A stretch of 48,791 bases of DNA, from IMG/VR virus record IMGVR_UViG_3300036940_000563, positions 1-48,791 of that record, one strand, 5' to 3'. Both the position numbers and the translations under genes were made by a program. Shown one piece after another: positions 10,528 through 48,703 of the stretch (positions are counted from its first letter, which is position 1; the number at the start of each line of letters is the position of its first letter). The notes beneath the pieces were generated by a model. It had not been told where the DNA came from. It ran no database searches and worked only from the letters and a program-made list of their open reading frames with translations. The DNA is from a virus (taxonomy: Duplodnaviria; Caudoviricetes).

Positions 10528-13001
10528 GTAGAGTAGGAAAGAACCGCCTTACCGTCTTTCGATGGCAGGTTTGTCCAGTCCTCTCTCCGAACCGCGCTTA
10601 CCCCTCTCGAAGTACACGGCTCTCCATTGTTCTTCAATTTTAGAAAACTCATCATTTTGGGTGGTGAATATTTTGGTGGCACTGATGGCAAACAACAAGC
10701 GTTTTTCTTTTCTTTGAAATCATAGCACGTTCCCAAAGCTCCTTACCTTTAAGGTCTTTTACTTTGTGAATATGGTGAATTTCATATTTCCCTGCGCCTG
10801 TTTTACCGCACAATTCACATATATCCGCATTTAACCGTTTATCAAAAGTGTTTCTGTTATAACCAATTGTAACTGCTGCTTTTGTTACGGTATCAGTTGC
10901 ATTTGCACCCTTGCAATTGGTGTATTTTGCGAAATACATAAGTTTCTTACCTGCTTTTGTTTCATAAGGAATAGCCCACGAACCTTTACCGTCCTTAAAC
11001 TTTTCCTTAATCTTCGTAATGCGGGTTTTGTGCTTTGTTGCCAGCGTTTTCAGACAACTATATTCCATTAAATAGTTAAAGTAATTTAAGTCGCTAAAAT
11101 TACTTGCTAAGGAATAATAGTTGCATATACCACGTAGTTCGGCATTAAAAATGGTGATGATTTCCAAATCGGTGGAGTTCCTGAGTGGCACTCTGCTAAT
11201 CGGAAACATCTCATCGCATTTCTTTTGCCTAACAATGCCTTTTGAAAACAGAAACTTGCTGATTTTATCCTTGGGTATGAGCAATTCCACTTTGTTGTTA
11301 AGCGTTCTTTGTGTGGGTCGCCCTTTTCCATGGGGTTTAATCGAACTATTCCTGCGGATACTAACATCATAGCCGAGAAAACGCGCTTTTTCTGAACTGT
11401 GTGTAATAAGAGTTTTTTCATCGCTGAGTTCCATTTTCAGCGTTCCGCTGATAAACTCAGCCAGTTTTCTCTTGATTTCCACACAATCCTCACGGTTTCC
11501 CTTAACGGCGATTAGAAAATCGTCAGCATAACGAATATATTTGATTTTCTTGTCGTCCTGCGGAGTATATGGGGTTCTCATCATTTCTGCTCTCACTTGT
11601 TTATATTGTTTGAGCAAGTCCTGCTTTTCTTCCCCGTCCGCACAATCAATCAGCTTTTTCAGTTTGACCCTCTGTGTGAACAAACGATTATACTCCTTTG
11701 TCCTTACAGTTTCATTGGGCTTGTCAAATTCTGATTTCAGCGTCATCACAAACTTATCCAGTTCGTGCAAGTAGATATTGGCGAGTAATGGCGAAATAAT
11801 TCCGCCCTGCGGCGTACCGCTATAAGTGTTGTTATACTGCCAGTTTTCCACAAAGCCCGCTTTTAAGAATCTGTAAATCAGCTTAATCAGCCTTGCGTCT
11901 TTGATTTTCTGGTTGATAAACCCTACCAATACGGCGTGGTCAATATTATCGAAACAACCTTTAATATCTCCCTCAACAAACCACTTAGCCCCTGTAAACT
12001 CCTTTTTGAGAGTTGAGAGAGCCGTGTGGCAACTTCTTTTCAGGCGAAAACCATGAGAGCAATTTAGAAATACTGGTTCATACACTGCTTCCATGACCAT
12101 TCTTAAAACTTCTTGGACGAGTTTGTCCGTGAAAGTTGGTATCCCGAGTGGTCGCATTTTGCCGTTTGCTTTTTTGATATAGGTTCGCCTTGCGGGCTTC
12201 GGCTTATAGGTTCCATCAGCAAGGGAAGCGATAATTTTATCTATCTTTTCCTTGCTGAACCCGTCTGCGGTGTCGTTATCAACGCCATTTGTTGCCGCTC
12301 CGCTGTTAGCATACAAATTCTTGTACGCCTCATACCAAATATCTTGACGCAAGAGGTAGCGATAAAGCCTTGTAAAGACTTCTTCACTGTTTTTCGATGA
12401 ATTTTCCTTAATGCTTGCTAAAATTTCCATTGTTGGTTTCATTTTGAGGTTTTCCTCCCTAATCAATTTTCATTTTAGTACAGAACAACTGCGTCCCTTC
12501 GCCTTTATGACGGCGTTACCGCCCCTGACTACTACGAACGCTCCGTAACCTTGCGGAATATTCAAACCCTTAGAGGTCATAGCCTTACGGCGTTTCCGTT
12601 TAGGTTATCCCCAGTTAGCATGATGTGTTGGAAATTGTGGATTCTCGGTTTTGCTTTCGTTTCGTTAAAACAGGTTCTCCTGCTCGTTGCGCAAATTATT
12701 GATAACAATAAGAGTCAAGATACTCCTCTTATTTGTCTTTGCGCCATAGGTTTCAGGCACTTTCCTATGTCCAATCGGAACGGATACTTGAAACTCACAT
12801 TCGGTAAATATAACCTAAACCTTATATCCACTTTACCTTGCAGTTCAGTCGTGTTATATTGCCTTAAACAACTTACTGCTTTCCTGCCATGCTCTGTTCC
12901 CGTGTCAGCTTTCGCTTTTCGGTTAGGCAGGTGGTTTACCGCGTTATCTTACGGTGTAGTTCCCACACTACAAAACAACATCATGCCCTATCTGGGCGCA
13001 C
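10528..13001 (-). mobile_element. Group IIA intron, Ll.LtrB-like (2474 nt)
   Basis: 5' GTGCGCCCAGATAGGG; domain V GAGAGCCGTGTACTTCGAGAGGGGTAAGCGCGGTTCGG (~10588-10624); domain VI with bulged A, 3' end ...CCTACTCTAC; removal restores the tail ORF. Confidence 0.97.
10652..12442 (-). CDS. ltrA: Group II intron RT/maturase with HNH endonuclease domain
   Basis: MKPTMEIL start, RPLGIP, GTPQGG, YADD, C-terminal CELC...HH...CHQCH; resembles LtrA; GGGAGG RBS. Confidence 0.95.
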   Translation of the reverse strand: MKPTMEILASIKENSSKNSEEVFTRLYRYLLRQDIWYEAYKNLYANSGAATNGVDNDTADGFSKEKIDKIIASLADGTYKPKPARRTYIKKANGKMRPLGIPTFTDKLVQEVLRMVMEAVYEPVFLNCSHGFRLKRSCHTALSTLKKEFTGAKWFVEGDIKGCFDNIDHAVLVGFINQKIKDARLIKLIYRFLKAGFVENWQYNNTYSGTPQGGIISPLLANIYLHELDKFVMTLKSEFDKPNETVRTKEYNRLFTQRVKLKKLIDCADGEEKQDLLKQYKQVRAEMMRTPYTPQDDKKIKYIRYADDFLIAVKGNREDCVEIKRKLAEFISGTLKMELSDEKTLITHSSEKARFLGYDVSIRRNSSIKPHGKGRPTQRTLNNKVELLIPKDKISKFLFSKGIVRQKKCDEMFPISRVPLRNSTDLEIITIFNAELRGICNYYSLASNFSDLNYFNYLMEYSCLKTLATKHKTRITKIKEKFKDGKGSWAIPYETKAGKKLMYFAKYTNCKGANATDTVTKAAVTIGYNRNTFDKRLNADICELCGKTGAGKYEIHHIHKVKDLKGKELWERAMISKKRKTLVVCHQCHQNIHHPK

Positions 13002-18380: not shown

Positions 18381-19898
18381 CTAAATCTTACTTTCTAATT
18401 TTTCTTTTCTTTTAATAAACTCGCTATTGTCTACTCCAGCATTATTGTAATAAACTATAGCTTTTTCACATACGGAGATTGCTTTTTCATAATCTTTATT
18501 CTTTTCATGAATTATTGCTAGTCTTTTAAATGCTGGTATGGTTACTGGATATCCTTTGTAAATATTTTCTTTTTCTTCTTTTATTTCCTTCTTAGAAAGA
18601 TACTTTGAAGATTGTTTTAGTCTTTTTAACTCTGTATCCATATATGCTTGTTGAAAATCATTTAGTGTTTTAAGATCATCTTCGCAGTATTTGATGCATT
18701 CATCTACATACTTATCATCTATTTTTCTATATTTATAATAAAATTTTTGCAGCTCTATATAGGTATAATGTCTACTAAAAGGATCATTGAAATTCTTTTT
18801 AAGATCCTTTAAAAGTCTTTTTTCTTCTTTTTCGTCAAAAACTAAAACTTCTTTTTTAGTTGCTTTTTTATTTTTCTTAACTTCTGGAGCTTTTCCTTTC
18901 TTCCTAAGCTCTACTAGTTTTTCTTTTACTGTTTCATGAGTTTTTATTAAAATATCATTGAATGTTTTCTTAAGCTTAAATGATTCAGAAATTAAAGGTG
19001 TTTTAATTTTTTTATCTGAAATTGATATATTTGCAAACATTGGTATATTTTCATTTCTAAGTTTCTTGAATTCTTTTTCGCTCAGTAAATCACTTATTTT
19101 AATGCTATTATCACCAAATTCATCAGAAAGTATTTCATTCATAGTCTCATCAAACAAATTTGGATACTTTTTAATATAATTATTATTAGTAAATTCAAAA
19201 GTTTTTGCAAGTCTTGTTATATCCTTTGAATAAATAGGAATATCAAAGCTATAAGCACTTAACAAGAATAAGTTGTCAGAGAAATTCAATTCATAATCTT
19301 TATCAAGAGATTTAATAAATTTCAACATCATATCTGGTCTCTGGTGATATAAGCAAGATAAAACTAATGCATTACCAGAATATGACTGAAAAGATGAATT
19401 TTCATGAACATCTCGCAACTTTAATATTACTTCAAATGCTTCTACAAATTTATCAGTTAATAAAAATCTTTCTAATCCATAATATAGTAAGAATACATAT
19501 CCAATCTCAAAATGTTTATTGTAAGGATTTGATAAGAATTTTAAGTATGCTCCTCTTTGCTCAGGATCGATTCCTTCATAAGATGGATAATATGGTAGTT
19601 TTTTAACCTTACTACTACTATTTAATTCCGATATGGTTAAATTAGTATCTATAAGACTAGGCTCAATGTCTGTACTCATAGAAAATTCAATGGTAAATTC
19701 ATATCCTCCGGCATTAAATTTTTCACTGTTAATATTTTTTTTACTTTCAAAGTTTTTTCTTGGTCCGTTTTTAAACCAAAGCAAATTTTTAATATCCTCG
19801 TGTATAGAGTATTTAACTATATCTAAACTGTTTGAAGTTGATACTAATTCTTTTACTTTTGATTTACCTTTCTTTTTCAATAAGTCAAATAATCCCAT
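18381..19898 (-). CDS. TerB N-terminal-domain protein with TPR-like C-terminus (moron)
   Basis: YYPSYEGIDPEQRGAYLKFL...IGYVFLLYYGLER matches the TerB_N pattern; AT-rich; inserted between terL and portal. Confidence 0.7.
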   Translation of the reverse strand: MGLFDLLKKKGKSKVKELVSTSNSLDIVKYSIHEDIKNLLWFKNGPRKNFESKKNINSEKFNAGGYEFTIEFSMSTDIEPSLIDTNLTISELNSSSKVKKLPYYPSYEGIDPEQRGAYLKFLSNPYNKHFEIGYVFLLYYGLERFLLTDKFVEAFEVILKLRDVHENSSFQSYSGNALVLSCLYHQRPDMMLKFIKSLDKDYELNFSDNLFLLSAYSFDIPIYSKDITRLAKTFEFTNNNYIKKYPNLFDETMNEILSDEFGDNSIKISDLLSEKEFKKLRNENIPMFANISISDKKIKTPLISESFKLKKTFNDILIKTHETVKEKLVELRKKGKAPEVKKNKKATKKEVLVFDEKEEKRLLKDLKKNFNDPFSRHYTYIELQKFYYKYRKIDDKYVDECIKYCEDDLKTLNDFQQAYMDTELKRLKQSSKYLSKKEIKEEKENIYKGYPVTIPAFKRLAIIHEKNKDYEKAISVCEKAIVYYNNAGVDNSEFIKRKEKLESKI

Positions 19899-23988: not shown

Positions 23989-24177
23989 CTACTCAACATC
24001 TACATATTCCATCAAGATTGCTAATGCCTCATCATAACTTTCAGCTTCTTTAGGAATTCGCTTTGTCATCTCATCTGCCTTTTCTTGTTGTCCAGCTTTT
24101 TTTAGCGTCCTTGATACAATTCCCATAAGATTAAAGATGTTGCCGTCTTCTCCTATGAGTTTACACTTAGGCTTCAT
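23989..24177 (-). CDS. Hypothetical phage protein
   Basis: LIGEDGNIFNLMG...SYDEAL. Confidence 0.7.
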   Translation of the reverse strand: MKPKCKLIGEDGNIFNLMGIVSRTLKKAGQQEKADEMTKRIPKEAESYDEALAILMEYVDVE

Positions 24178-24913
24178 CTTTATCACCGGCCTTTCTAAAA
24201 GCACTGCTACCTTTTAGGTGCTTAAGGAGTGCCCTTCTACTTTCCTTATACTCCGTACCCTTCATACCAATTCTAATAAGCCAGGTTCTAAGAGCATACT
24301 TTGGATTGTCATCTTGGGCCTGCTTAAAAGAAGCTCTGTTCAAGGTCTTGGAATATTCTGAAATAAGAACACATAAGTCTTTAAAGGCTTTTGCTCTTTC
24401 AGGACTTAAGCTTGAGACGTGAAGATAGAAAATAAGGGTTTCCTGTTCAAAGTCAATCTTTAATCCTGTACATCTAGCTCTTCCGAGTTTTTCAATGGAT
24501 GCTTTTAATTCTTCCAAATCATTAATATCTTCTTTGTTTAACTCCTCAGCAAAATTATCATCCATGAAATGTTCTTCTGTTTGGAAGGACATCATGATTA
24601 AGCCCTGCTTGCTGTAAAGCATGTTTATGATATTCTTTAAACTGGTAGCTGTATGATCTTCAAATTCTATTTTCACTTGGATACTGTCTAAATCTTGATG
24701 TAGATTCTTTTCAATTTCTGACTGATGTAATATTTCATCTGCTGTTATAGTTTCACCATTGCTTTTACTGATAATTCCAAACCTGTCAATGGTATACACT
24801 TCTTTATCTGTTTTAATCTCATAGTTAAAGGTAGGAACTCCTAAATACTTAGGTTCTACTCCTAAATTCTCTCCGAGTTTTTTAATTATTTCTTTTCTAT
24901 CCATTTCATCCAC
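24167..24913 (-). CDS. 'Virulence-related' phage protein sharing a C-terminal domain with the amidoligase
   Basis: PKYLGVPTFNY N-terminus; DNPKYALRTWLIRIG C-terminus. Confidence 0.7.
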   Translation of the reverse strand: MDEMDRKEIIKKLGENLGVEPKYLGVPTFNYEIKTDKEVYTIDRFGIISKSNGETITADEILHQSEIEKNLHQDLDSIQVKIEFEDHTATSLKNIINMLYSKQGLIMMSFQTEEHFMDDNFAEELNKEDINDLEELKASIEKLGRARCTGLKIDFEQETLIFYLHVSSLSPERAKAFKDLCVLISEYSKTLNRASFKQAQDDNPKYALRTWLIRIGMKGTEYKESRRALLKHLKGSSAFRKAGDKDEA

Positions 24914-24915
24914 CT

Positions 24916-25230
24916 CTATCCTACTTCCAAACCTGTGTACCGTGGATAATTGTAGCCTTCTGAATTTACCAAAACCTTCTCATCAGTTTCTATGTTGGTA
25001 ACCCGTATGCATCGAACCTGGCCATTATCATTGATACCTCCATCTCCTTTGGATATCCAAGGTTGGTCTTTTAAAAAGTCATTTGCAAATTCTTTAAAGT
25101 CTTTGTCTTTTAGAATCACTTCTCTGATGATGGTGTAGGGTTGACCTTTTCTGCCTTCTTTTATTGCTTGATTGGTAAGTTGTTTTAGCTCTTTTAAGTT
25201 ACATACTTTCCTTCCAAATTAAGCTCTCAT
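24916..25230 (-). pseudogene. Hypothetical protein (DUF6329-like) with a nonsense codon at position 4
   Basis: TAATG-coupled start, ATG AGA GCT TAA TTT GGA AGG..., then open in frame to VNSEGYNYPRY. Confidence 0.7.
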
Positions 25231-25418
25231 TACTTTCTCCCTCCAAGTCTTTTGAAATCTCCTTCTTGGATAAACTCTTCTATCTCTCCGGCGGTGTAGA
25301 CTAGGCAGTTATCGTCATCATCCTTAACTGGTGAAAGTACATAGTCATTTCCCCATCTTCCTACTATCTCGTAAGTCTTGCCTCTTTTGCTTTCGAATCT
25401 ATCTTTTTTCTTTATCAT
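25230..25418 (-). CDS. Hypothetical protein
   Basis: 62-aa ORF with RBS, downstream of a repeated promoter-like motif. Confidence 0.6.
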   Translation of the reverse strand: MIKKKDRFESKRGKTYEIVGRWGNDYVLSPVKDDDDNCLVYTAGEIEEFIQEGDFKRLGGRK

Positions 25419-25527
25419 CCTTTCCTTTTCCTCCTTGCTTTTAAATTCTTTTGGTACTACTATATATCACTCTAAAAGCACATAATTGCAAGAGAAATTT
25501 TAAGAAATGATGTATATTTTTTTCTGG

Positions 25528-26016
25528 TTATATATACTTCGGTGGATACTTTTGAATAGCTTTATTGCTTATTTCAAGAGCCTCATCAATAAATTCTAAA
25601 TCAAATTCTGCAGCTTCATATCCTACTATAACAGTATCAAGATAACTTCTGCTTGGCAGATTCAAATTAATCCTGTCTAATACCTTGTCCGTCATTATGT
25701 ATGCCATGGCTGTAATTGTCTTACCATTTTCAAGAGTTACCTTCACATCTTTCTTGTCATAAAATCTAGGATATCCTTCGTAATAATCAAGGGCTCTTTC
25801 ATCTTCCGGTTGCAGCTCCCAAACTATCACAGGAACCTTTCCGTCGTTTTTCTTTTCTACTGTGCAGTAGGCATTATCCACCTGTCCTTTAAACAGAAGT
25901 CTATATCCTTTTAAAGTTCCTTTACCGTGTACCTTTGCAGTCGGACATCTCATAGCCATCTGCTTTAGATTTAGATTTGACCCGTAAGCTATGTTTAATC
26001 TCTTTTCTTCTTTCAT
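25528..26016 (-). CDS. Gamma-glutamylcyclotransferase (AIG2-like)
   Basis: AYGSNL...QMAMRCP...LDYYEGYP. Confidence 0.88.
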   Translation of the reverse strand: MKEEKRLNIAYGSNLNLKQMAMRCPTAKVHGKGTLKGYRLLFKGQVDNAYCTVEKKNDGKVPVIVWELQPEDERALDYYEGYPRFYDKKDVKVTLENGKTITAMAYIMTDKVLDRINLNLPSRSYLDTVIVGYEAAEFDLEFIDEALEISNKAIQKYPPKYI

Positions 26017-26154
26017 CTTTACTCTATCCTTTCTTGAAGGGCGGTTTTACCCCTTTAGCTTTCCTTGTGTGGGCTTTTAACTTGATTGGCTAGCCCTTCT
26101 ACCGACTTAAGAGGGGTTTCCCCCTCCGTGGCTTTAGTTGCCGCTTGTTTTTAT

Positions 26155-27078
26155 CTATACGGCCCTTCGAAATCTCCAGGCTGCACTTCCATCAAGGTGC
26201 TTGCAAAGGTGTTCTCTGCAGTTCTTGAATTCTTCGCCGATAAAGCCGATTCTGTTAAGCCAGGTTCTCATGGAAAACTTAGGGTTATCAATCTGCGGCT
26301 TCTTGGTGCTGGCGCTTTTTTGGGTTAAGGCTTGGTGGTTCATCCCTAAGGCTAGGACTACAAAGCTTCTAATCTTTCCTGCGTGAAGGGTTCCGTTAAA
26401 GCCTCTTAGTTCTACCGTACCGCATCCGTTGAAAAAGCTGTGAAGATTTAAAAAGTGGTATCTACTTTCGTGGTAGTGTCTTTCTCTTCTGCTGCTGTAG
26501 CCTTTGTACCATATATCTTCTATTTGTCTAAAGCTGGTTGGTTTTATCTTATTCATTCTTTCAACCAGATTCTTGTCCATCTTTTTACAGTAGTACATTC
26601 TTCTTTGTTCTATCTGCAAGGCTTCGTATAAAAGGTCGTTTCTTGAGTAGATGATGTTCATGAAATTTCTTATGGATCTTGGTGTGTGTTCCAGTCCGTC
26701 TAAGTGGATGTGAATTCCGGTGCAGTTTTGTTTTTCTGAAAAGGCTCCTGCCTTTCTTAGTTTTCTCACCATCTCTTGAAGGTCCTTCATGTCTTTTTCG
26801 TAGGTCAGTATGGGACTTACCAATTCTACACTGTATTCTTTTGAAGCTGAAACCTTTTGACCGCCAGATTTTTTCTGGGTGTAAATGCTTCCGTCGTACA
26901 TTATCTTCCAGCTTTTTCCATCCGGTGCTTCGATTTTAAAGGTTCCGTAGTAATCATTTAGTTCCTTTACTTCTCCGTCTAAGTGTTCTCCTATTATCTT
27001 AGCAGCCTTTCTTCTTGTAATTCCTGTCATTTCTATTTCTATTCCGAACCTGCTTTTTAAAAATTCCTTGTTTTCCAT
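26155..27078 (-). CDS. Putative amidoligase (COOH-NH2 ligase type 2)
   Basis: FGIEIE, DGSI, ELVSPIL, TGIHIH, RYHFLN, TVELR. Confidence 0.9.
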   Translation of the reverse strand: MENKEFLKSRFGIEIEMTGITRRKAAKIIGEHLDGEVKELNDYYGTFKIEAPDGKSWKIMYDGSIYTQKKSGGQKVSASKEYSVELVSPILTYEKDMKDLQEMVRKLRKAGAFSEKQNCTGIHIHLDGLEHTPRSIRNFMNIIYSRNDLLYEALQIEQRRMYYCKKMDKNLVERMNKIKPTSFRQIEDIWYKGYSSRRERHYHESRYHFLNLHSFFNGCGTVELRGFNGTLHAGKIRSFVVLALGMNHQALTQKSASTKKPQIDNPKFSMRTWLNRIGFIGEEFKNCREHLCKHLDGSAAWRFRRAV

Positions 27079-27184
27079 GGTTTTTCCCCTTTCTGGTTTT
27101 GAGTGTGTTTCTTTTCTTATATACATATATCACTCTAAAGGGGATAAATATCAAGTCATTTATTGAAAACATACTGTATACTAT

Positions 27185-33268: not shown

Positions 33269-35671
33269 CTACTCTTTCACCCTGCAGAAAGTCTTTTGAT
33301 TACCGTAAATTGGAAATCTTGTCTGTCCTTGCTTGTTTCCGGAATATGTCTCCCAACCACCGATTCTCATTAAGACTCCTATTATTTCGAAGGAGTCTTG
33401 CCTTCTTAAATTTGTCTTGTCCTTCCCTAAACACTCACACCAAATTTCATGAACACATACCTTTTCTCTTATCACAGCACCTAAAGGTACCGTAGTTCCA
33501 AATTCACTCTCTCCTGCCAGGTAACTTCTTCTCTGATAAAGGTCCATGTTGTCCCAATTATCTGGCAGTAAGGTTTCAAGGTAATCCCCGATAAGCCCTT
33601 CTCTGTCATCCGCCTCCATGGCATCTCGCTGTTCTTCGAAGGCTATCTTTTCCTCTTCAGCGGATAATATTAAAGGTTCACCGTTTCTATAATACTGAAG
33701 AGCTTCAGCCCATATCTGATCAATGTCTGTCATTTCCCATACGCTTTTCTTTCCATCACCAACTCTTACTGGCCAGAATCTTCTGTTTCCTGTGATGTCT
33801 CTTAAGAAACCACTGATGTTATTGGTACTGCCTACAATGATGCACTGCCTTGGGTGGTTCTCAACATTTATTCCGTAGCTTTGTCTGAACTTATCATCTG
33901 TTCTGGTTATGAATGACTTTACAGTTTCTACATCCATTTTTCTTAAGCCGGCAAGTTCTCCAAGTTCCAATATCCAGTAGCCTTGCAGCTTTTCTGCTCC
34001 TGATTTATCTCTCATGTCAGATACGGTTAAACTATCTGAAAACCACTGTCCGGCTAGCTTGGCGAAGAAGGTAGATTTACCTATTCCTTGAGGTCCATTG
34101 AGTACTAAGATATAGTCAAACTTAGTTCCCGGCTCATAAATTCTGGCTACTGCTGCCACCATTGTTTTACGTATGACAGCTCTCGTATAGTTGTTATCCT
34201 CTGCACCTAGATAGTCGATAAGAAGACTATCCATTCTCTCCCTTCCGTCCCAAACAGGCAGTCCTTCCATGTAGTCCTTGATTGGATGAAACACTCTCTC
34301 CGAAGCTGCTGTTATCAAGGCGTCTTTTACTTTAGCAGGTGACCATATACCGTAATGCTTATCGAGATACATCTTAAGGTTGGAGTGGTCTGAATCGTTC
34401 CATCCGTCTTTCACCTGCTCCCAAGGAAGAGGTCCGTTGACATCTATTAAATATTTCATTTGGTTGTATGCAATGCACTGTAATCTAGGATCGTGTCTCA
34501 TAATCGTTAGAATATTTGTTGGAGTGTCTTTTACAGAACCATTCTTGTTAAGCTCAAGTTCCAGCTGCCAGGTTAGATCTTCTTCCTTTTCTTCGTTATC
34601 GGTTAATTGAATATCTTCTACCTTTTCAAATTCCTCTTTTATCTCTTCTTCTCGTTCTTTGGCCAGTTGCTTTTTTACCTTTTCATCCATTGTACAAAAC
34701 TCAAGCATAGCTTTTACTGATAGTAGCTGCTTGCCTTCGTTTTTTTCTTCATCAAGGTATCCAAAGCGGTGTATCCTTACAAGGTCAAAAGCATTACACA
34801 ATTGATTACAAGCCGGGTCCGTTGCGTGATGAGAATATGCATATTTACCGTTGTAGATTACAACTCCTGCTGTAGAATCAGCCGGTATGTAGTCGTAGCG
34901 CTCAGGCACCACACTTGGTTGGTAAATATCTGAAAGAAAAGCTTCAATGACTTCTTCTATAGAATAGGTCCTGCAAAATGCTCCAATTAATCCCCCTTTT
35001 CTTATAGGATCCGCCTGCTTTTTCATCAGTCTATTTAACAATTTAGTTTGTCTTGATGACACAGGCCATAATGATGTATCCTGCCAGTTCTCGTAAATCT
35101 TTAAAATGCTGTAAGGATTTAGAAAATCTCCCTTTATTTCCCTGAAAAAATATTCTCCATCACTAGATGTGCTTGGCCAGTACATAAGCCTGTTAGGCTC
35201 GTATGTTGTATCATCAAATAGCTCTATCCCTATTTCTTTAGCAATCATCCTGCTTACTGCTTGATACTCGTCAGCTGTAACAGTTCTTGATAAAGGGATG
35301 ATAAGTCTAAGTCTTGGATTTTCTTTTGTGTGTTTATGAGTTGAGTAGATTACTGCTGCATACCCATAAAGCATCTCCAAGTTATCGGCTATTGATAGAG
35401 CATTATCTCCATGATCCATATCTAGGGTTATCATAGACCTGTTAATTACACTGTCCTTGGTTCTTCTTCTTTCTTTTAATTGTCCTGCTACAAAACCGCC
35501 AACATCCTTTACATTGTCTTGCTGGTACTTCTTCATTTTTTTGTATTCTTCTTGGGTTTCACTTGTTAAGGTAGTTCGGGAGAGTCTTTTAGAAAACTCT
35601 TCCCAGGACACCGTCTGTTCTTTTAAAAACTTATCTTTCCGACTGTTGCCTGTTGATATTGTAAATTTCAT
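33269..35671 (-). CDS. Primase-helicase with VapE domain
   Basis: LDMD..STHKH..RLRL N-terminus; GPQGIGKST; TGNRRFWPV. Confidence 0.9.
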   Translation of the reverse strand: MKFTISTGNSRKDKFLKEQTVSWEEFSKRLSRTTLTSETQEEYKKMKKYQQDNVKDVGGFVAGQLKERRRTKDSVINRSMITLDMDHGDNALSIADNLEMLYGYAAVIYSTHKHTKENPRLRLIIPLSRTVTADEYQAVSRMIAKEIGIELFDDTTYEPNRLMYWPSTSSDGEYFFREIKGDFLNPYSILKIYENWQDTSLWPVSSRQTKLLNRLMKKQADPIRKGGLIGAFCRTYSIEEVIEAFLSDIYQPSVVPERYDYIPADSTAGVVIYNGKYAYSHHATDPACNQLCNAFDLVRIHRFGYLDEEKNEGKQLLSVKAMLEFCTMDEKVKKQLAKEREEEIKEEFEKVEDIQLTDNEEKEEDLTWQLELELNKNGSVKDTPTNILTIMRHDPRLQCIAYNQMKYLIDVNGPLPWEQVKDGWNDSDHSNLKMYLDKHYGIWSPAKVKDALITAASERVFHPIKDYMEGLPVWDGRERMDSLLIDYLGAEDNNYTRAVIRKTMVAAVARIYEPGTKFDYILVLNGPQGIGKSTFFAKLAGQWFSDSLTVSDMRDKSGAEKLQGYWILELGELAGLRKMDVETVKSFITRTDDKFRQSYGINVENHPRQCIIVGSTNNISGFLRDITGNRRFWPVRVGDGKKSVWEMTDIDQIWAEALQYYRNGEPLILSAEEEKIAFEEQRDAMEADDREGLIGDYLETLLPDNWDNMDLYQRRSYLAGESEFGTTVPLGAVIREKVCVHEIWCECLGKDKTNLRRQDSFEIIGVLMRIGGWETYSGNKQGQTRFPIYGNQKTFCRVKE

Positions 35672-35837
35672 TTTCTACACCCCTCATAGGTTCTAATCTT
35701 TTTAATACTCTTTCTAAACCTCTTGCAGCTCCCGGCACATCTCCTGATAATGCCTGTCCCTTTAATGTCTTTATAGTATTTCTTGGTAGTATGTTTCTAT
35801 ATTGTTTTAAATGTTTTATAAATTGATTTGCCGTCAC
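35631..35837 (-). CDS. Small hypothetical protein
   Basis: GGAGG then GTG start; TLKGQALSGD..GAARGL. Confidence 0.65.
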   Translation of the reverse strand: MTANQFIKHLKQYRNILPRNTIKTLKGQALSGDVPGAARGLERVLKRLEPMRGVENEIYNINRQQSER

Positions 35838-35853
35838 TGTATCCTCCTTTGTA

Positions 35854-38737
35854 TTAATCCTTCTTATAGAACTCACATTCGTATCCATCTGCATCCAGGG
35901 GCAGTCCTTTTGACCACTTGGGACTTTCACTCATAATGCTGCAGACTTCTTCTACACTGGACTCTCCTATTGGCACTTCGCATATAATCTCATCATGTAC
36001 ATGACCAACTATTGAAAATCCTGTCTTGTCAAGTCTGATCATAGCTTCAGCTAGTAAATCTCTGGATGCAGCCTGTACTATATTTTCTACAATCTTTGGT
36101 CCGTAGGTTTCAATTCTCTCCCACTTTCTATTGGTCCCGATTCCTTCGTAGGTAAGCCCTTCTCTTCCAAATTTGTTTAACATCAACTTTGGTTTTACGT
36201 AGACCAGGTCTCTTCCTGAAGGCAAGGTTACAAACAGCATTCCCATTTTATATGTGAAGATAATCCCGTGGGTTCTTGTTCTGGTTCTCTGTTTCACTGC
36301 CTTGATGGCTGCCTTGTCAACTTCCCACCAGAAATTTACAATGTGGGGATTGGCTCTACGCCAGTTATCAATAAGACCTTGAAGTTCGTGTTCTTCGACA
36401 CCCATTTCCAATGCACCCATGGACTTTAAGGCTCCAACTCCACCACCGTATCCGCAGTTGTGCACTAGTTTTCCCGATACGGTAAAACGATTATGTCTTC
36501 CGGCATTTCGTATGTCATAAACTCTAACCTTGCCTCTATTAATCGCCAGTTCTTTCTTTTGTTTATCACTGCATCTTCTGCTGATTTTATGATTTGTTCT
36601 CGGTTCATACCGTCTCTTAGTTTCCTTGATACAACGCTTCTCGCATAAGGCCAGTATTCCTGATTCCATCTGGTTAAGAGTGTTAATTTCCGATTGGCTT
36701 GATTTATACTTCTTTCTACAAATCTTATATTTCCTTCTTCGTAGTGACCCTCGTTGTTGATTCGATCCATCTCCAACTCTATTTTCACATTCTCCACATT
36801 GGCAAGTATCCAAAGTCCTGCTTCTAATATGGAGTTGAATTTGAACTCTATTCCTCTTTCTCCGTATCTGTGATACTGTGGATTGTTTGGGTTTTGACAT
36901 CTTTGTTTTGCTTGAGTTAATCGTCGGTCTAACCACCTTGGAATTTGCATTGGCTGTGAACAACTTTGACATCCCTTTGATTTTCCAGTCCTCAGGTTTC
37001 CAAGATGACTCCACTGAATTCTCTTGCATCCCACACACTGGGTCAGTACATGACAATGATTCCATTTCTTGTTCCATCTCTTCTCCGGGCTGATAATTCT
37101 CACCCAACCGTATCTTTCTCCCACCATTTCCTGTTTGTATGAGATGTGAGCTGCTGGCGGCGGCTTCTCCAAATTGTACTGGCTTCGATTGCCCCTTAAC
37201 CCACACGAGATGATCTTTTGTTGCTTTAAGTCCTTCATATTCAATCACTTCTTTCTTTCCTTTATAAACCACACCTTCATGATTCACCCATTCTTCTCCA
37301 TCCCACAATTTATGTTTAATAGTTATATCTTCAATTGGAACTAGTCCTTTATCTGTTAAAACAAGTTCTCCTTCTGCAATGCAAGCCAGCTCTGAAATTT
37401 TACCTTTCTGTCTTAATGAACTACCTTTAGTTATTTCCTCAATTGGTACATGAAACATTTGTGACGCGGAAGCCTCATAGATTTTTCCGTGAGACTTGAA
37501 AACTTCCAGCCTCCACTTTTCTTTAGCCAGCCATGACAGTACTCTTGCCTCTATGGCTGAAAAGTCAGCTACTATAAACCTATGACCTTCTTTAGGAATA
37601 AAGGCGGTCCTTATAAGTTCTGATAAGACACCGGGCGTATTGCCAAAGAGCATCTGAATATCATCAAATCGTCCTTCTTTAACCATTTCTCTTGCAAGCT
37701 TTAAGTCTAAAAGGTGATTCTGAGGGATATTTTGAAACTGAACCAATCTGCCGGGCCCACCTCCCTGTACGATTAGCCCCATAGAACTGAAATAGCCCAT
37801 GGACTCTGCCACCTAAACAAACTGCCCTATCTATGGCTTCATATTTTCTGACACTGGTCTTAGCCATCAAAAGCCTTAACTTCAGAGCTTCTTCTATTTC
37901 TCCTTCAGTTTCATCCACCAGCTCCTTCACATTTTTCTTTGATAAGCTCTCAACTTCAACACCGCGATCCGACAACCAGTCTTTTAACTGTGATACGGAA
38001 TTTGGGTTTTCAAGACCTGTGAGTTCGTAGGCTCTTTCTGTTGCAGCTACAGTAAACTGTCTATCACAGGAGATGGCCTGAATAACAAAGTCCATATCTG
38101 CTTTTAATCCTCTATCGTTGATTCGTTGGTCCAGCTCATAAAGGATCTGTTCTGATTTTGGTATTGGAAAATCTTTAATCTTCTTTCTAATTTCAAGTTC
38201 CACTTCAACGTCTCTGATGTTGTACTGTTTGAACATTTCCCATTTGTTTGGTGCATCCGCTGGAAGGTTTCTGCTTCGTCCGCCATTAGCTGCAGTTGGC
38301 TTACAGGGAATACAGAAGTATCTGATTAGAGGTTTTCCTTCAGACATCTTCTGTGCATCCAGCCTTAGCACCTTGGCCACTCCCTCAAGGTGGAGAGGAA
38401 GTCCAAGCATTGCTGCCTGAACCTCACTGCACCTCCATGAAGATGGGTTAAGGTAGATATCATTTTGAAGTAGTCTGCTTAGATATTTCATAAGAGCCAC
38501 CCTTTCAAAGTTGGCATTGAAGGCTGTTTTGATAACATAACTACTGAGAATTGCTTCTATTATTTCTTCCGGTATCTCTTCACCACTAGCAATATCAACT
38601 AGTTCTACCGGTCCTTCATCTATACTGTAAGATAACAACAAGATGTCAAAGTTCGGGCTGTCTGTGTAACGGTAAACACCGCACTTTCTGAGGTCTACAT
38701 CAGAGAAGGTTTCAATATCTATGGAAATTATCTTCAT
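35854..38737 (-). CDS. polA: Phage family A DNA polymerase, frameshifted (extra base at 37753-37755) and intein-containing
   Basis: DIETFS exonuclease; RTGRWA/GRLVQ across the shift; ADFSAIEAR motif A; KISELA[intein]CGYGG motif B; HVHDE motif C. Confidence 0.92.
36457..37383 (-). mobile_element. Intein (309 aa) in PolA motif B
   Basis: Starts CIAEGELVLTDKGLVPIEDI; block B ATKDHLVW; ends VYDIRNAGRHNRFTVSGKLVHN followed by +1 Cys; removal restores ELACGYGGG. Confidence 0.95.
36465..37244 (-). CDS. HNH-type homing endonuclease nested in the +1 frame of the intein (start uncertain: 37244, 37238 or 37127)
   Basis: CVGC...GKSKGCQSC; AKQRCQNPNNPQYHRYGERGI; MDRINNEGHYEEGNIRF...NQANR. Confidence 0.85.
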   Translation of the reverse strand: MNMKDLKQQKIISCGLRGNRSQYNLEKPPPAAHISYKQEMVGERYGWVRIISPEKRWNKKWNHCHVLTQCVGCKRIQWSHLGNLRTGKSKGCQSCSQPMQIPRWLDRRLTQAKQRCQNPNNPQYHRYGERGIEFKFNSILEAGLWILANVENVKIELEMDRINNEGHYEEGNIRFVERSINQANRKLTLLTRWNQEYWPYARSVVSRKLRDGMNREQIIKSAEDAVINKRKNWRLIEARLEFMTYEMPEDIIVLPYREN

Positions 38738-38766
38738 AGCTTTACACCTTTCTTTTCTTTAAAATA

Positions 38767-39300
38767 CTAAGCCAGAAAATCATCATCTTCTTCAATCTCA
38801 AAGTCATCTTCAGCTCTGCTCTTTCCACCTAGCGGCTCTCCATCTTTTAATTTTTGCAAATTTCCAAGTCCTGCTGCGATTCCTCTATTTCCGTTAACAT
38901 TAAATGCATATAGATTGATGCTGACTTTTCCATAACACCCAGAGTAAACCTCGCTTCTATCAAGAATAGTTTGAACCTTTCCGTCCACCACTTGAGGTGC
39001 GTCTTTCGAGTTTGCATTGATAAAATAACAACCTTTGTAGTTTGGATCATCTGGTCTGTCTATGTCTCCATCTCGAAGAGGTGTCTTAAGATTTGCAGGA
39101 ACCTTGCCGCCGAACTTCGGTGCCCCTTCCTGCTTGGCTGCTTCTACAGCCTTAAGTACTTTATTTACTGTCTTTTTATCTGACTTTGGAATAATGACTG
39201 AAACGCTATATTTCGGGTCGCTTCCGTTAATGCTTCTTGGCTCCCAAATGTTTGCGTAACTTAATCTTCCCGGTATTACTACTTTCGTTTCTTTACTCAT
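38767..39300 (-). CDS. DUF2815 ssDNA-binding protein (T7 gp2.5-like)
   Basis: RLSYANIWEP, PLRDGD, YSGCY, acidic tail. Confidence 0.9.
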   Translation of the reverse strand: MSKETKVVIPGRLSYANIWEPRSINGSDPKYSVSVIIPKSDKKTVNKVLKAVEAAKQEGAPKFGGKVPANLKTPLRDGDIDRPDDPNYKGCYFINANSKDAPQVVDGKVQTILDRSEVYSGCYGKVSINLYAFNVNGNRGIAAGLGNLQKLKDGEPLGGKSRAEDDFEIEEDDDFLA

Positions 39301-40510: not shown

Positions 40511-40860
40511 TTAATCTCTCCTACTTCCTTTAATGCTGATGCGTAATGTTTAGGCTCTAGAGAAGATAGATTATTTGCACCATATTTTGTGATTATGGCT
40601 TTCACCTCTTCCCTGTGTCCGTCTCTGCTTTTATCTGCCATTGCAGCTCTGACTTCTTCTAGAGTCGGTTGTTTTTCTTCTGGTTCTTTAATTTCTTTTG
40701 CTTTTTCTTTAGTCTTTGCTTTTTTCTTAGCTCCTTCATCAGCGACCTCATTTGTCTTCACAAATTCATTGGTTTCCATAGCTTGAACTAATATTTCAAT
40801 GCTTTTAGCCAGGGATTTAAGATCGCTTACAACTTCTAATGCGAGTTTTATTTTACTCAT
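40507..40860 (-). CDS. Conserved hypothetical phage protein
   Basis: TLEEVRA...KYGANNLS; usual position before DUF2800. Confidence 0.75.
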   Translation of the reverse strand: MSKIKLALEVVSDLKSLAKSIEILVQAMETNEFVKTNEVADEGAKKKAKTKEKAKEIKEPEEKQPTLEEVRAAMADKSRDGHREEVKAIITKYGANNLSSLEPKHYASALKEVGEIK

Positions 40861-42073
40861 TATTCGATACTCCTTTCTTTTTTAAATATTCTGTAGTCAG
40901 TTCTTTTAAAATTGGAACCAAATCCTTCATCTCCCAGGGTGTATCCTTAAGTTCACCATCAAGGATCATCTTTTCTCTGCCAAAGTGACCATAGGTTGCA
41001 AACTGTTTATAGATAGGTCTTCTCAGTCCAAAGGATTTTATGATGGTTCCAGGTCTCATATCAATAAGAGTTTTGATAATCTCAGTTAAAACTTCATCAG
41101 GTAGTTTTCCGGTTCCAAAGGTGTCTATCTTGAAGGACACCGGCTCGGATATCCCAATAGCGTAAGACACCTGCACTTCGCATTCCTTAGCCAGACCTGC
41201 TGCCACAATGTTCTTTGCCATGTATCTGGAAAGATAAGCTCCTGATCTATCTACCTTTGTTGGATCCTTCCCAGAAAAAGCTCCACCGCCGTGACGTCCT
41301 TTGCTTCCGTATGTATCAACTATAATTTTTCTACCGGTTAAACCTGAATCTGCAGCCGGACCTCCTAGTACGAATCTTCCTGTTGGGTTGATCATCACCT
41401 TCGTGTTTTTTGTCATAAGCTCTTGCGGGATGACCTTTAAGATTATATGTTTCATCACATCTTCCCTGAGTTTTTTAATGTCTACGTCTTCAGTGTGTTG
41501 GGTAGACACCACTACTGCTTCAATGGATAAAGGCTTATGATCCTTTCCATATCCCAGGGATACTTGCGCTTTCCCATCCGGTTTAAGATAGATAAGTTCT
41601 CCTGTTTTTCTAGCTTCAGCCAATCTTTTGCATAGCTTGTGAGATAATATGGCCGTCAGAGGCATCAACTCATCTGTTTCATCAGTTGCATATCCAAACA
41701 TCATTCCTTGGTCTCCGGCACCAGTTTCTTCCTTATCAACACCTATTGCTATATCCGGTGACTGCTTGTTTATGGTTATAAGCATTCTGTAGAATTCACC
41801 ATCAGTTGATAGCTCATCCGCTCGATAACCGATGTCGTATATAATGTCTTTTATAACTTTCTTGTAGTCAATCCTCTTTTCTGTGCTGGTTTCTCCAAAT
41901 ACATGTATCAGTCCATCTGCAGCAGTTACTTCAATTGCTGTTCTTGCTTTCGGGTCTTCTCTTAGAATGGCATCCATTATTCCATCTGCTATTTGATCGC
42001 ACATTTTATCTGGATGGCCCTCTGTAACAGATTCAGAGGTGAATACATACGCAGGTTTGTCTTTTTCTTTCAT
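40853..42073 (-). CDS. metK: S-adenosylmethionine synthetase
   Basis: FTSESVTEGHPDK, GAGDQG, GGGAFSGKDPTKVDRS, YGHFGR. Confidence 0.97.
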   Translation of the reverse strand: MKEKDKPAYVFTSESVTEGHPDKMCDQIADGIMDAILREDPKARTAIEVTAADGLIHVFGETSTEKRIDYKKVIKDIIYDIGYRADELSTDGEFYRMLITINKQSPDIAIGVDKEETGAGDQGMMFGYATDETDELMPLTAILSHKLCKRLAEARKTGELIYLKPDGKAQVSLGYGKDHKPLSIEAVVVSTQHTEDVDIKKLREDVMKHIILKVIPQELMTKNTKVMINPTGRFVLGGPAADSGLTGRKIIVDTYGSKGRHGGGAFSGKDPTKVDRSGAYLSRYMAKNIVAAGLAKECEVQVSYAIGISEPVSFKIDTFGTGKLPDEVLTEIIKTLIDMRPGTIIKSFGLRRPIYKQFATYGHFGREKMILDGELKDTPWEMKDLVPILKELTTEYLKKKGVSNNE

Positions 42074-45186: not shown

Positions 45187-46122
45187 GTGGTGCAAATGCA
45201 TCAGTTGAACAAAACATTAAAAGAAGCCGGATTTGAAAATATTTTTACAGAAGTTAACCATTCGGAATCCTTGGGACTCGTCAACCCCCATCAATTACGA
45301 ATGTTCCATTTAGATATACGAAACAATACTTTTTCATTTGATGCATTGCACGACTTTCTATTAAAAAATATAGGACGTTATGTTTTTTCTCGTGCTCAAA
45401 TGGACCAATTTCGCTTAGATGATGATCTTGAAGTTGTTGGCGCAAAAGCAATTGGTCTGGTTAAAAATGCTTGTAATATGGATCCCGATTGGATGGGTGA
45501 AGAACTTGGTGACATCATGCTTTATGTATTTTTAGAGCAAATCTTAAATGCACCTAAGCTATTTAGCAAAATAGAATTGACCCAATTTGGCAATCAGCAC
45601 ACTAAAAATGGCGGTGGTGTTCATCTATTGCCTCTAGGTAATATGGGTGCTAGCCCTTCATATCAACTGATATTTGGAAAATCGAATGTCATCGGTGATA
45701 TTAAAAATGCCATTGATAACGCTTTTGACCATATTATTGCCATAAGAAATAACGTACCTAAAGAGCTACGAGTTGTTGAAAGTACCGTCTTTTCTCAAAC
45801 TTACGATCCTCAAACTGCTGATTTTCTCAAAGATATCATTATTCCTAGCAAAAAAAAGAACACCCCAGTAGATAAGGCGTTCGGTGTATTTCTTGGTTAT
45901 TCACTTGGTCTTAAGCCAAATAAACGTTCAACTGATGAATTTAGAACATTATTTACGAAAAAAATGGATGATGATATCAAAGCTCATGTTGCTTATATTG
46001 CCAATAAAATAAATACTGAAAAATTAGGTAATCATTCATTTTACTTTTATATTTTGCCTTTTAATGATGCTGATAATGAAAAACAAAGCATTATGAATAC
46101 TGTTCTAGGGGGAGGTTATTAA
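45187..46122 (+). CDS. hamA: HamA-like (DUF1837) protein (likely start ATG 45196)
   Basis: LGDIMLYVFLEQILNAPKLFSKIEL, GVH, GVFLGY, YILPF; 1 nt upstream of the helicase. Confidence 0.75.
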   Translation: MVQMHQLNKTLKEAGFENIFTEVNHSESLGLVNPHQLRMFHLDIRNNTFSFDALHDFLLKNIGRYVFSRAQMDQFRLDDDLEVVGAKAIGLVKNACNMDPDWMGEELGDIMLYVFLEQILNAPKLFSKIELTQFGNQHTKNGGGVHLLPLGNMGASPSYQLIFGKSNVIGDIKNAIDNAFDHIIAIRNNVPKELRVVESTVFSQTYDPQTADFLKDIIIPSKKKNTPVDKAFGVFLGYSLGLKPNKRSTDEFRTLFTKKMDDDIKAHVAYIANKINTEKLGNHSFYFYILPFNDADNEKQSIMNTVLGGGY

Positions 46123-46123
46123 G

Positions 46124-48703
46124 ATGGAGAATATAGATGGTGTTAAATTAGGTGCTGCCATATTTAGTGAAATTGACCAGAACCTCTATTTAAATGAATT
46201 GTATGATAATATCTTACATAACTACTCAATGAACCTATTTGGACTTAGAACTGATAGAAATAAGTCTATTGATATTGAAGATGCATTGCGTTTTGCTGAC
46301 ATTTTATCTAAATCCAATGACCCAATAAATTCTGACAGACACAAAATCATGGCTCAGGAAATTGTTGCACTGCTAAAAAACATCCATCCTGAAAATCCAA
46401 CTATTGATTTTTATTTAGAATCTGTACTATTAAGCACCGGTAACTATAGAGGTATGACATTAGTAGCCCCTAATCATAAGCATGGAACTTTAATGGATCG
46501 GTTTTATACTGAATTCAGTAAAGACTATATGCGTATTCCTGCTGCACCTGAATCTCAATTCTTTCGTTCTCAGAAGGCTGTCTATGACCGTTTAGATGAT
46601 TCATACTTCAGCTATTCCGGCCCGACATCAATGGGAAAATCCTTTATCATGCGTATGTTCATCAAAGAGCAGGTTATGAAAGGGATAAAGGCAAACTTTA
46701 CCATTCTAGTTCCAACTAAAGCACTTATTAATGAGGTATCTAGCAGTATCATCAATGATCTTAAAGAAATGCTTGCTGAACACAATTACAAGATAATTAC
46801 TTCTGCAGGCGCCTTGGCTCTACAAGAGGATCACAATTTCATTTTAGTTTTAACACCAGAGCGAATGCTCTATTTGATGATTAGTAATCCAAGTATTGGT
46901 ATCGATTATTTATTTGTTGATGAAGCACATAAAATTTCATCCAAAGACAGTCGCAGCCCATTTTACTATAAAGTGGTAGATATGTTGAATCAGCGAGAGA
47001 ACAAACCTCATATGATTTTTGCTTCACCAAATATTCCTAATCCTGAAGTTTACCTTAAACTAATACCGGATGCCCATTCTTTGTTTGAACAGAAATTGAC
47101 AACTACTTTTACTCCTGTAAGCCAGATGAAGTATTTTATTGATTTTCAAACCCAAAAAGTTCAAATGTTTAACAACTATAGCGGTGAATTCATGGAATTT
47201 TCATCTTTAAATGAAAAAGTCACTTTTAATAAATTAATCTCACATATCGGTAAAGGCCGCCAGAATATTATTTACTGTAATTCAATTGCCAAAGCTGTCA
47301 GATATGCCTGTGAATTTGCAAAAGGTAAGCCTAAACGTGCTGAAGAAGAACTTTTGACTTTAGCAAAGGATATTATGAATGAGGTTCATGGAGACTATTA
47401 TCTGGCAAATGTTATTTCAAAAGGTGTTGCCTATCACATTGGATACTTGCCATCTGCCATCCGTATGCGTATTGAAGAGCTATATCGAAGCGGTTTAATC
47501 CATACAATCTTTTCCACCAGTACTTTGGTAGAAGGGGTTAATCTCCCAGCGGATAATTTATTCATTACCCATTATAAAAACGGTCGCCCAGAGATGACCA
47601 TTGTAGACTTTAAGAATCTTGTTGGTCGCGTAGGAAGAATCGAATATAACCTCTTTGGAAATGTATTTCTTGTCCGCTTAGAAGAAAATGTAGAAGCGAA
47701 GAAATTCATAAAACTCATTCAAAGCGAAGTTCCTGACCAACTTTTATCCTTGGTAACAGAATTGAAAAAATCCCAAAAGAAAAAAATTGTTGCCTCTCTT
47801 TTAGAGGGTAAGATTGAATTTATTAAACAAAAGAATCAAACTTATGATCAGTTCGCCCTCATGCGAAAATTTGCTATGATTCTATTAAGAGATATTACCA
47901 GCGGTAATGACAGCTTAGTAAAGAAAGAATTTGCTCCTTTTTTAGATAAAGAAAAAGAAACAAGAATCCTTGAAGCCTTCAAAGACAAAAAAGAAAAACC
48001 CGATGATGACATTAATATTTCCCTTGACCAAGTACATAATCTGACATCAGCCATTGCCAAAGGGCTAAGGTATCCGAATCCCAATTCTAGTGGTAATATT
48101 GATTACACCGATTTAATGGCTTTTTTAGAAAAACTTAGTGAAATTTTCAAATGGGAAATCTACGAAAAGCAAACCCTTGGTCAGAAAAAGAATGGAAGAC
48201 ACGGAAAGTTAAGATGGTATGCTGTTATCTTGTCGCAATGGATGTCTGGAACTGGGTTAAGTTTTATCATACGCGAAGCAATTAAATATAAGCGTAACCA
48301 TCCTGAATCAGGAGTAAAAGATTATAGCTACAATTATGTAGATTATAATGATACCCTTGAACACCGAAATATAGTGATTTCAGAAACGTTAAAAGTCATT
48401 GAGCACGTTGTTCTCTTCAGCATTTCCAATTACTTTTTAAGATTTTCATCAGAGTATAAGCGATTTCATAATATTGAATCATTTCAAAATGACTGGTATG
48501 AATATGTTGAATATGGAACAACCAATCCTCTGTCTATAACCCTTCAACGGAATGGATTTTCTAGAGAGACATCGACATATATTAAAAGGCATCAAACTCA
48601 ATACGTTATTAGAATGGAAAACGGTGACATTAAACTCCGCCGAGCTCTTGCTGAATGCGACAACACAAGCGTCAGTAATGAAGTAGCGGTGTTTGTCAAG
48701 TAA
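46124..48703 (+). CDS. hamB: HamB-like Ski2/DEAH helicase
   Basis: GPTSMGKS, VPTKAL, TPER, DEAH, STSTLVEGVNLPA, GRVGR; paired with DUF1837. Confidence 0.85.
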   Translation: MENIDGVKLGAAIFSEIDQNLYLNELYDNILHNYSMNLFGLRTDRNKSIDIEDALRFADILSKSNDPINSDRHKIMAQEIVALLKNIHPENPTIDFYLESVLLSTGNYRGMTLVAPNHKHGTLMDRFYTEFSKDYMRIPAAPESQFFRSQKAVYDRLDDSYFSYSGPTSMGKSFIMRMFIKEQVMKGIKANFTILVPTKALINEVSSSIINDLKEMLAEHNYKIITSAGALALQEDHNFILVLTPERMLYLMISNPSIGIDYLFVDEAHKISSKDSRSPFYYKVVDMLNQRENKPHMIFASPNIPNPEVYLKLIPDAHSLFEQKLTTTFTPVSQMKYFIDFQTQKVQMFNNYSGEFMEFSSLNEKVTFNKLISHIGKGRQNIIYCNSIAKAVRYACEFAKGKPKRAEEELLTLAKDIMNEVHGDYYLANVISKGVAYHIGYLPSAIRMRIEELYRSGLIHTIFSTSTLVEGVNLPADNLFITHYKNGRPEMTIVDFKNLVGRVGRIEYNLFGNVFLVRLEENVEAKKFIKLIQSEVPDQLLSLVTELKKSQKKKIVASLLEGKIEFIKQKNQTYDQFALMRKFAMILLRDITSGNDSLVKKEFAPFLDKEKETRILEAFKDKKEKPDDDINISLDQVHNLTSAIAKGLRYPNPNSSGNIDYTDLMAFLEKLSEIFKWEIYEKQTLGQKKNGRHGKLRWYAVILSQWMSGTGLSFIIREAIKYKRNHPESGVKDYSYNYVDYNDTLEHRNIVISETLKVIEHVVLFSISNYFLRFSSEYKRFHNIESFQNDWYEYVEYGTTNPLSITLQRNGFSRETSTYIKRHQTQYVIRMENGDIKLRRALAECDNTSVSNEVAVFVK

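Follow-up and report, generated by a model that had tools for sequence, protein, structure and literature searches.

Can the nuclease of an intein be encoded in a reading frame other than the one that is spliced? This question is raised by a stretch of viral DNA of 48,791 nucleotides (nt) (IMG/VR record IMGVR_UViG_3300036940_000563; the whole stretch analysed is called the window here), in which an initial annotation, made from the letters alone, described an intein whose DNA also encodes an HNH-type endonuclease in the +1 frame. The window is the genome of a temperate tailed phage with portal, terminase, capsid, tape-measure and tail genes and a replication block (DUF2800 nuclease, single-stranded DNA-binding protein, DNA polymerase, VapE-like protein, VRR-NUC and SNF2 helicase), and oil-field metagenomes hold DNA near-identical to it. 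The host gene of the intein is the phage family-A DNA polymerase gene (polA), on the minus strand, which is interrupted in motif B. We suggest, with a probability of roughly 0.78, that the locus is a two-gene selfish element, in which a likely self-splicing intein shares its DNA with a conserved nuclease-like protein, the latter probably made by separate translation and probably responsible for homing into motif-B sites that are still empty.

Class 1 inteins are defined by Cys1, the block B motif TxxH, the block F Asp, a terminal His-Asn and Cys, Ser or Thr at position +1. As initially annotated (C1, TxxH and HN before Cys), the splicing blocks are all present: the insert has Cys1, T55-x-x-H58, the block-F Asp and H308-N309 before Cys, its junctions read ELA/CIAE...LVHN/CGYGG, and the polymerase frame is stop-free throughout. 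T55 and H58 are unchanged in 30/30 intein representatives. Among the best 80 of 456 polA loci nearest to the C-extein, the precise site was empty in 75, four carried an intein and one was unresolved; the insert is exact, because the empty alleles read ELA/CGYGG or ELA/LGYGG. Neither Pfam nor NCBIfam gave a match for the intein or for two short forms of it, and PHROG matches in the intein frame are weak and confined to its N-terminal part. A check for group I and II introns with Rfam (E-values up to 1, positions 35500-39000) found no match, and a self-splicing intron is not needed, since the insert is in frame and has intein motifs.

The intein frame and the +1 frame are open simultaneously over 771 nt, while the +2 frame holds 34 stops and the reverse frames 10-18. 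The +1 open reading frame (ORF) stops 8 nt short of the intein 3' end and matches HNH families in PHROGs (best E-value 8e-18), and no Pfam or NCBIfam model matches it. The ORF had been described as 259 codons long and as overlapping the intein centre of ~200 residues; its motifs, its end and the overlap were as described, but its likely start is the ATG at 37238, which gives 257 codons, and it is not confined to the centre, since with separate initiation at this ATG it also covers splicing blocks B and F.

The +1 protein has 265 relatives in a set of 367 candidates, most of them 59-68% identical among the 120 matches listed. With the nuclease as query we assembled 62 loci (the window, 32 viral and 29 genome loci), of which three were dropped at contig ends, leaving 59 complete inteins, all at the same polA site. 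Their lengths are 927 nt (50 inteins, a redundant set with 38 unique sequences), 930 nt (one) and 360-504 nt (eight). Frame 0, that of the polymerase, is open in 59/59, and a fractured gene or split intein is thereby ruled out for these inteins; the +1 stretch spans at least 258 codons in 49/50 inteins of 927 nt. As an independent check, the intein N-domain was used as query and the best 80 of 86 loci were examined. The nuclease motif was at +1 in 54 of these and at +2 in one, a different, canonical HNH motif was at +2 in five, and no nuclease motif was seen in 20 (short, truncated or missed). It was in frame in none of the 80. Out-of-frame placement thus holds among homologues, as does conservation of the ORF.

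The +1 frame is also the one that is selected, as was seen in 24 representatives less than 95% identical to each other, with the ratio of non-synonymous to synonymous substitution rates (dN/dS) taken from 51 close pairs. The variable codon position changes along the intein. In codons 1-46 the polymerase frame is constrained (dN/dS 0.26, versus 1.86 in +1), whereas in the centre the pattern is reversed (1.47 in frame 0 versus 0.12 in +1); in codons 90-277 the proportions of non-synonymous and synonymous differences (pN/pS) are 0.24/0.77 in +1 and 0.39/0.27 in frame 0. Where the nuclease overlaps the splicing domain both frames are constrained, with dN/dS of 0.47 in frame 0 and 0.52 in +1 for codons 47-89, and of 0.44 and 0.31, respectively, for codons 278-305.

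Codon usage in the +1 ORF carries the same signature. In the window copy, T occupies the third position of 0/41 +1 codons at risk of creating an intein-frame stop, versus 37/74 elsewhere in the ORF. It should be noted that 0/41 is forced by the open intein frame, so that the informative figure is the null obtained by synonymous resampling, in which 17.1 intein-frame stops were expected and 0/2000 resampled sequences were stop-free. Across the representatives, T is third in 0/926 codons where an intein-frame stop would arise versus 918/2184 elsewhere, and ordinary genes of the window do not avoid it (221/584 versus 475/1164). For 23 sequences (L032, which has a +1 stop, was left out), resampling predicts 13-18 stops each, and not one of the 2000 draws per sequence was free of stops. 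Therefore, we conclude that the centre encodes the +1 protein and that the polymerase frame is only kept open, which is expected if it is read through and spliced. The dual coding is real and under selection, and it is probably functional. The initial annotation had anticipated both results, the frame-specific selection and the stop-avoiding codon bias, except that the codons concerned avoid T and do not all end in C.

What kind of protein is maintained in this way? The matches to PHROGs agree with an HNH-type nuclease, as first annotated, but not with a canonical one of the His type. Arg stands where HNH enzymes have His in 118/118 close and 126/126 distant motif matches. We consequently rejected a canonical HNH homing endonuclease of the I-HmuI type, in which, according to the accessible text of PMC3384342, His75 is the general base. 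Endonuclease VII-like, LAGLIDADG and VSR-like types were likewise rejected, as Pfam gave no match and the protein has PHROG HNH matches and an HNH-type motif instead. By motif and spacing, with weak fold support, the +1 protein is predicted to be a His-Me finger of the PacI type (group 20), with Y166 as putative catalytic tyrosine and the N-terminal beta domain possibly serving as a zinc-binding, DNA-binding module. PacI is, in the accessible parts of PMC5714182, PMC4081073 and PMC13139853, a dimeric restriction enzyme with an 8-bp site; the likeness to it, in Arg for His and in the position of Tyr, is one of motif and spacing.

These properties bear on a first alternative, which we consider quite improbable: that the +1 protein, although produced and conserved, is no homing nuclease, being a dead DNA-binding protein or serving another phage role, and that the intein spreads by ordinary recombination or through other nucleases. 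The loss of the general-base His in all motif matches would suit a dead enzyme, as His-Me fingers without His can be inactive (accessible text of PMC5714182), and so would the weak fold scores and the searches of solved structures and of PacI, which gave no sequence match below E 0.24 and no match, respectively. However, in 49/49 diverse segments the predicted site keeps its D, R, Y and N unchanged (the motif used for picking them requires D/E, R, Y/F and N), the same residues plus Asn+21 are present in 117/119 close relatives, and the spacing of 7 from R159 to Y166 equals that of Arg93/Tyr100 in PacI. The pattern of transfer also speaks against this alternative, as short flank tracts beside near-identical inteins fit site-directed transfer and clean deletions of the ORF recur, as in a homing cycle.

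Homing into empty motif-B sites, the role originally assigned to the nuclease, is supported by this distribution. Carriers are spread over the extein tree, their monophyly is rejected (approximately unbiased test, p-AU 2e-56, 29 versus 34 rows), and intein identity hardly correlates with extein identity (Spearman 0.16, 57 sequences). In the pair L094/L152 the inteins are 91-100% identical, the 90 nt upstream 93-98% and the 45 nt downstream 96%, and beyond these near flanks identity is 51-84%, rising to 93% at most in the last interval compared. Upstream of the site, and once more beyond the first 90 nt downstream of it, L043 and the empty allele L091 are 93-97% identical; within those 90 nt identity drops to 43-73%, and the Leu of L091 is Cys in L043. 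Position +1 is Cys in 68/68 carriers versus 34/65 empty alleles. The flank tracts and the Cys+1 pattern are compatible with cleavage at the site or 3' of it, the Cys being brought in by co-conversion. Most of the short inteins derive from full ones by deletion (L168-L170 share 97-98% identity with L166).

Separate translation of the nuclease, as had been proposed, is backed by a conserved ATG and binding site. The ATG is formed by intein Tyr49, which is encoded by TAT in 23/24 representatives versus 46% in exteins, and Glu45 is GAG in 20/24 versus 42% in exteins, which places a GAGG (Glu45-Val46) about 8 nt upstream of the ATG (P values of 2e-7 and 5e-5, respectively, which ignore relatedness). 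The predicted binding energy averages -8.9 kcal/mol versus -2.0 in controls, and reaches -6 kcal/mol or better in 87% of 30 relatives versus 7% of control windows; the later Met of the ORF has no binding site. Upstream of the ATG, 93 of 1152 codons in the +1 frame are stops; the figure falls to 0 of 888 over codons 49-85 and is 1 of 5280 thereafter. One relative has ACG as its start codon, and the ORF ends a few codons early in 3/30 relatives, so that its tail appears dispensable. Initiation at the +1 ATG is thus the best reading of these sequence patterns.

A second alternative would dispense with a start of its own: a +1 ribosomal frameshift could yield a fusion of PolA-N, intein-N and nuclease. 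The nuclease lies on the same strand with an offset of +1, sites resembling a Shine-Dalgarno sequence can stimulate +1 ribosomal shifts, and one of the 24 representatives lacks the ATG. We regard this as very unlikely, since constraint falls precisely on the bases of the ATG and of the binding site some 8 nt before it, +1 stops remain common as far as codons 45-46, immediately 5' of the ATG, and intein nt 61-360 hold no conserved RNA structure. That the arrangement is an artefact, either of compensating sequencing errors masking an in-frame endonuclease or of a chance shadow ORF, is refuted, a frameshift elsewhere in the window's polA notwithstanding, by two frames open over 771 nt, by a register that is the same across dozens of independent assemblies and GenBank phages, by contigs from other runs that match the intein without gaps, by selection favouring the +1 frame and by stop avoidance.

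We therefore return to the two-gene element, which would work as follows. Ribosomes in the polA frame would make a precursor in which the intein centre (about 190 residues) is filler, under selection only against stops and removed by splicing. Other ribosomes would initiate at the Tyr49-derived ATG via the GAGG of Glu45-Val46 and make the 257-residue His-Me finger nuclease with its predicted PacI-like Arg/Tyr site. Its target would be polA without the intein, cleaved at the insertion site or 3' of it; with the intein allele as repair template, the intein and 45-135 nt of downstream flank would be copied, which would supply to Leu alleles the Cys+1 that splicing requires.

Several observations weigh against this mechanism, most of them for the window copy in particular. 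The predicted binding site of this copy is weak (-2.2 kcal/mol), and flank tracts like those described can also arise through ordinary recombination. In addition, polA of the window has a +1 frameshift ~370 nt upstream of the intein, which had been overlooked in the initial annotation. The frameshift is real, being bridged without gaps by contigs from three other runs (X5, X10 and X16), and this copy may be defective. The family-level evidence is independent of it. The extra base is rare (3 shifted versus about 2600 intact genes); L001 has it too, inside a 57-nt identical patch of an otherwise 85% alignment.

Some further features of this site were noted. The same +1 base at RTGRWA/GRLVQ occurs in the window, in L001 and in two distant intein-free genes (L222 and L224), and it coincides with the second intein site of polA. 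At protein level, conservation still seems to hold for the exteins of L001 and of the window (90-93% identical amino acids at about 85% nucleotide identity). At this second site, RTGRW/SGRLVQ, a continuous intein is present in L043, L086, L095 and L133, L043 having inteins at both sites; the polA of L202 also has two inteins. Positions of these and other features of the window are given in Table 1.

Table 1. Features of the intein locus and, in the last rows, other genes of the window (aa, amino acids; a slash marks an insertion site).
Feature	Position	Strand	Match or remark
PolA C-extein, first residue Cys+1 (CGYGG)	35854..36456	-	
Intein, 309 aa, 927 nt, class 1 motifs, at ELA/CGYGG	36457..37383	-	
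Intein C-terminal splicing region	36457..36552	-	block F Asp 36514-36516, HN 36457-36462; overlapped by tail of +1 ORF
+1 nuclease-like ORF, 257 aa from ATG 37238	36465..37238	-	259 aa from TTG 37244
C-terminal helical module of +1 protein	36516..36704	-	42% over 67 aa in common with a GIY-YIG nuclease of related polA genes with split inteins
Predicted His-Me finger active site (D158 R159 Y166 N170 N179 N182)	36693..36767	-	
N-terminal beta domain, CxxC...CxxC (C68, C71, C90, C93)	36960..37127	-	predicted zinc-binding DNA-binding module
Intein block B, T55-x-x-H58	37210..37221	-	within +1 ORF
Predicted ribosome-binding site position of +1 ORF	37246..37257	-	GAGG in most relatives, weak GAAG in window copy
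PolA N-extein 3' of frameshift (motif A, start of motif B, end KGKISELA)	37384..37752	-	PF00476
C run with one base more than intact relatives (polA frameshift)	37753..37755	-	
polA 5' ORF, 352 aa	37679..38737	-	phrog_17 DNA polymerase, E 7e-55; out of frame after RTGRWA through +1 base
Group II intron reverse transcriptase/maturase with HNH domain	10652-12466	-	among tail and head-completion genes
TerB-N/TPR gene	18381-19898	-	between terminase and portal
Two amidoligase genes with gamma-glutamyl cyclotransferase	24167-27126	-	
S-adenosylmethionine synthetase	40853-42073	-	
HamA-domain gene, then DEAD-box helicase	45187-48703	+	presumably a Hachiman-like defence pair

The dual-coded arrangement extends beyond this polA site. 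Other registers of PolA motif B have the same splicing domain and +1 nuclease, and so do SF2 helicases, among which L192 and L210 keep the nuclease and L185 has a deletion. Matching records from annotated phages number 231, of which 145 belong to Salmonella phages. In three Salmonella and E. coli phages (L348, L349 and L352; PP932687, MT711526 and PP280813) a nuclease relative of 248 codons lies at +2 in a polymerase intein, whose site is four residues upstream in motif B, and Gardnerella phage AB1 carries the +1 form. The nuclease is unannotated in 4/4 intein-bearing GenBank records examined.

Where did the nuclease come from? The initial annotation had a free-standing HNH gene invade a mini-intein. 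Free-standing relatives that share the motif do occur (EfV12-phi1 gp144, 27% identical, and L197), but the short inteins look like deletion products rather than ancestors, and none of the inteins found is clearly an ancestral mini-intein. Terminase large-subunit inteins (L215, L217, L218, L219 and L220) have a canonical HNH ORF in the +2 frame, apparently a second, independent out-of-frame family. L073 and L083 (1413-2628 in each) have a split intein at RTGRW/SGRLVQ of polA; a GIY-YIG gene lies between its halves and overlaps them, and the C-terminal module of the encoded protein is 42% identical to that of the +1 nuclease. The other nuclease at +2 in terminase inteins and the GIY-YIG gene between split halves point to repeated capture of free-standing nucleases, which is the likelier origin. 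It is unlikely that the nuclease was instead an in-frame domain ancestrally and lost that register through an indel at each junction, an origin that would be compatible with the mechanism proposed above. The same nuclease family at +1 and +2 in related inteins indicates that frames can change, and the want of a clearly ancestral mini-intein suits slippage as well. Yet the motif is in frame at 0/80 intein-queried loci, the 575 candidates include just five longer fusions, each produced by a frameshift on one side and lacking a nuclease flanked by the two intein halves, and both the free-standing relatives and the presumed captures just described argue for acquisition from outside.

Based on these findings, we see even odds for the fullest version of the story, in which old, stable and very widespread dual-coded inteins carry a His-less PacI-type tyrosine nuclease with start signals in splicing-domain codons, have moved among many PolA and helicase sites and between +1 and +2, invade Leu alleles through Cys co-conversion, and are hidden in E. 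coli and Salmonella phages. Many phage polymerase inteins that seem to have a decayed endonuclease would then carry an intact, selected nuclease gene missed by annotation, and a tyrosine-type active site would be added to those of homing endonucleases. It would also be explained how an intein requiring Cys+1 enters a site with Leu in about half of the empty alleles. With its size, the family provides a natural experiment on whether out-of-frame nucleases are transient in intein evolution or persist as a stable state, and the present data favour the latter; cultured E. coli and Salmonella phages with the nuclease allow direct testing.

How does this system compare with those already known? In fractured genes, reportedly described by Dassa et al. 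in 2009, split inteins flank a free-standing endonuclease. The nuclease gene is likewise separate from the splicing protein and within the intein locus, and L073 and L083 have that layout; unlike there, the intein frame of the window is continuous and the nuclease overlaps it. The novelty is lower than implied by the initial annotation, which named an out-of-frame HNH only from a non-intein phage methylase insertion and called for a literature check: other inteins with an out-of-frame nuclease, and the same model of invasion, appear in two preprints (Gosselin et al., bioRxiv 10.1101/2025.01.02.630785; Phillips, DeSimone and Gogarten, bioRxiv 10.64898/2026.09.14.751524). In the accessible text of the former, actinobacteriophage inteins have an endonuclease VII-like gene in frame 3. 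That system resembles ours in its contiguous phage intein, disordered in-frame centre, same-strand nuclease in another frame, signs of continued transfer and proposed origin by invasion of a free-standing gene; as far as that text goes, it differs in that our nuclease is His-less and HNH-like, in the host (PolA motif B and helicases in our case), in that its second ORFs are typically outside the splicing domain whereas ours overlaps blocks B and F, and in that the layout is rare there and the rule here. The preprint of Phillips et al. concerns a cyanobacterial DnaX intein with an out-of-frame LAGLIDADG endonuclease. Overlapping same-strand ORFs, frame-specific dN/dS, a putative Shine-Dalgarno site, empty, mini and full alleles and a patchy tree are common to both systems, but the DnaX intein has a different nuclease type, a bacterial chromosomal host gene and a single insertion site. 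Phillips et al. cite Gorbalenya 1998. The ShiLan-type phage insertion (Arsenault et al. 2025, PMC11855218), from what is accessible of that paper, shares a hidden HNH ORF, an insert open in the host frame and signs of homing, but is no intein and lacks splicing domains, whereas the window element has complete intein motifs. We found no publication on the PolA/HNH-like dual-coded family in a search that misses most subscription journals and preprint supplements. Overall, what is new here is the different type of nuclease and host, the overlap onto the splicing blocks and the wide, stable spread.
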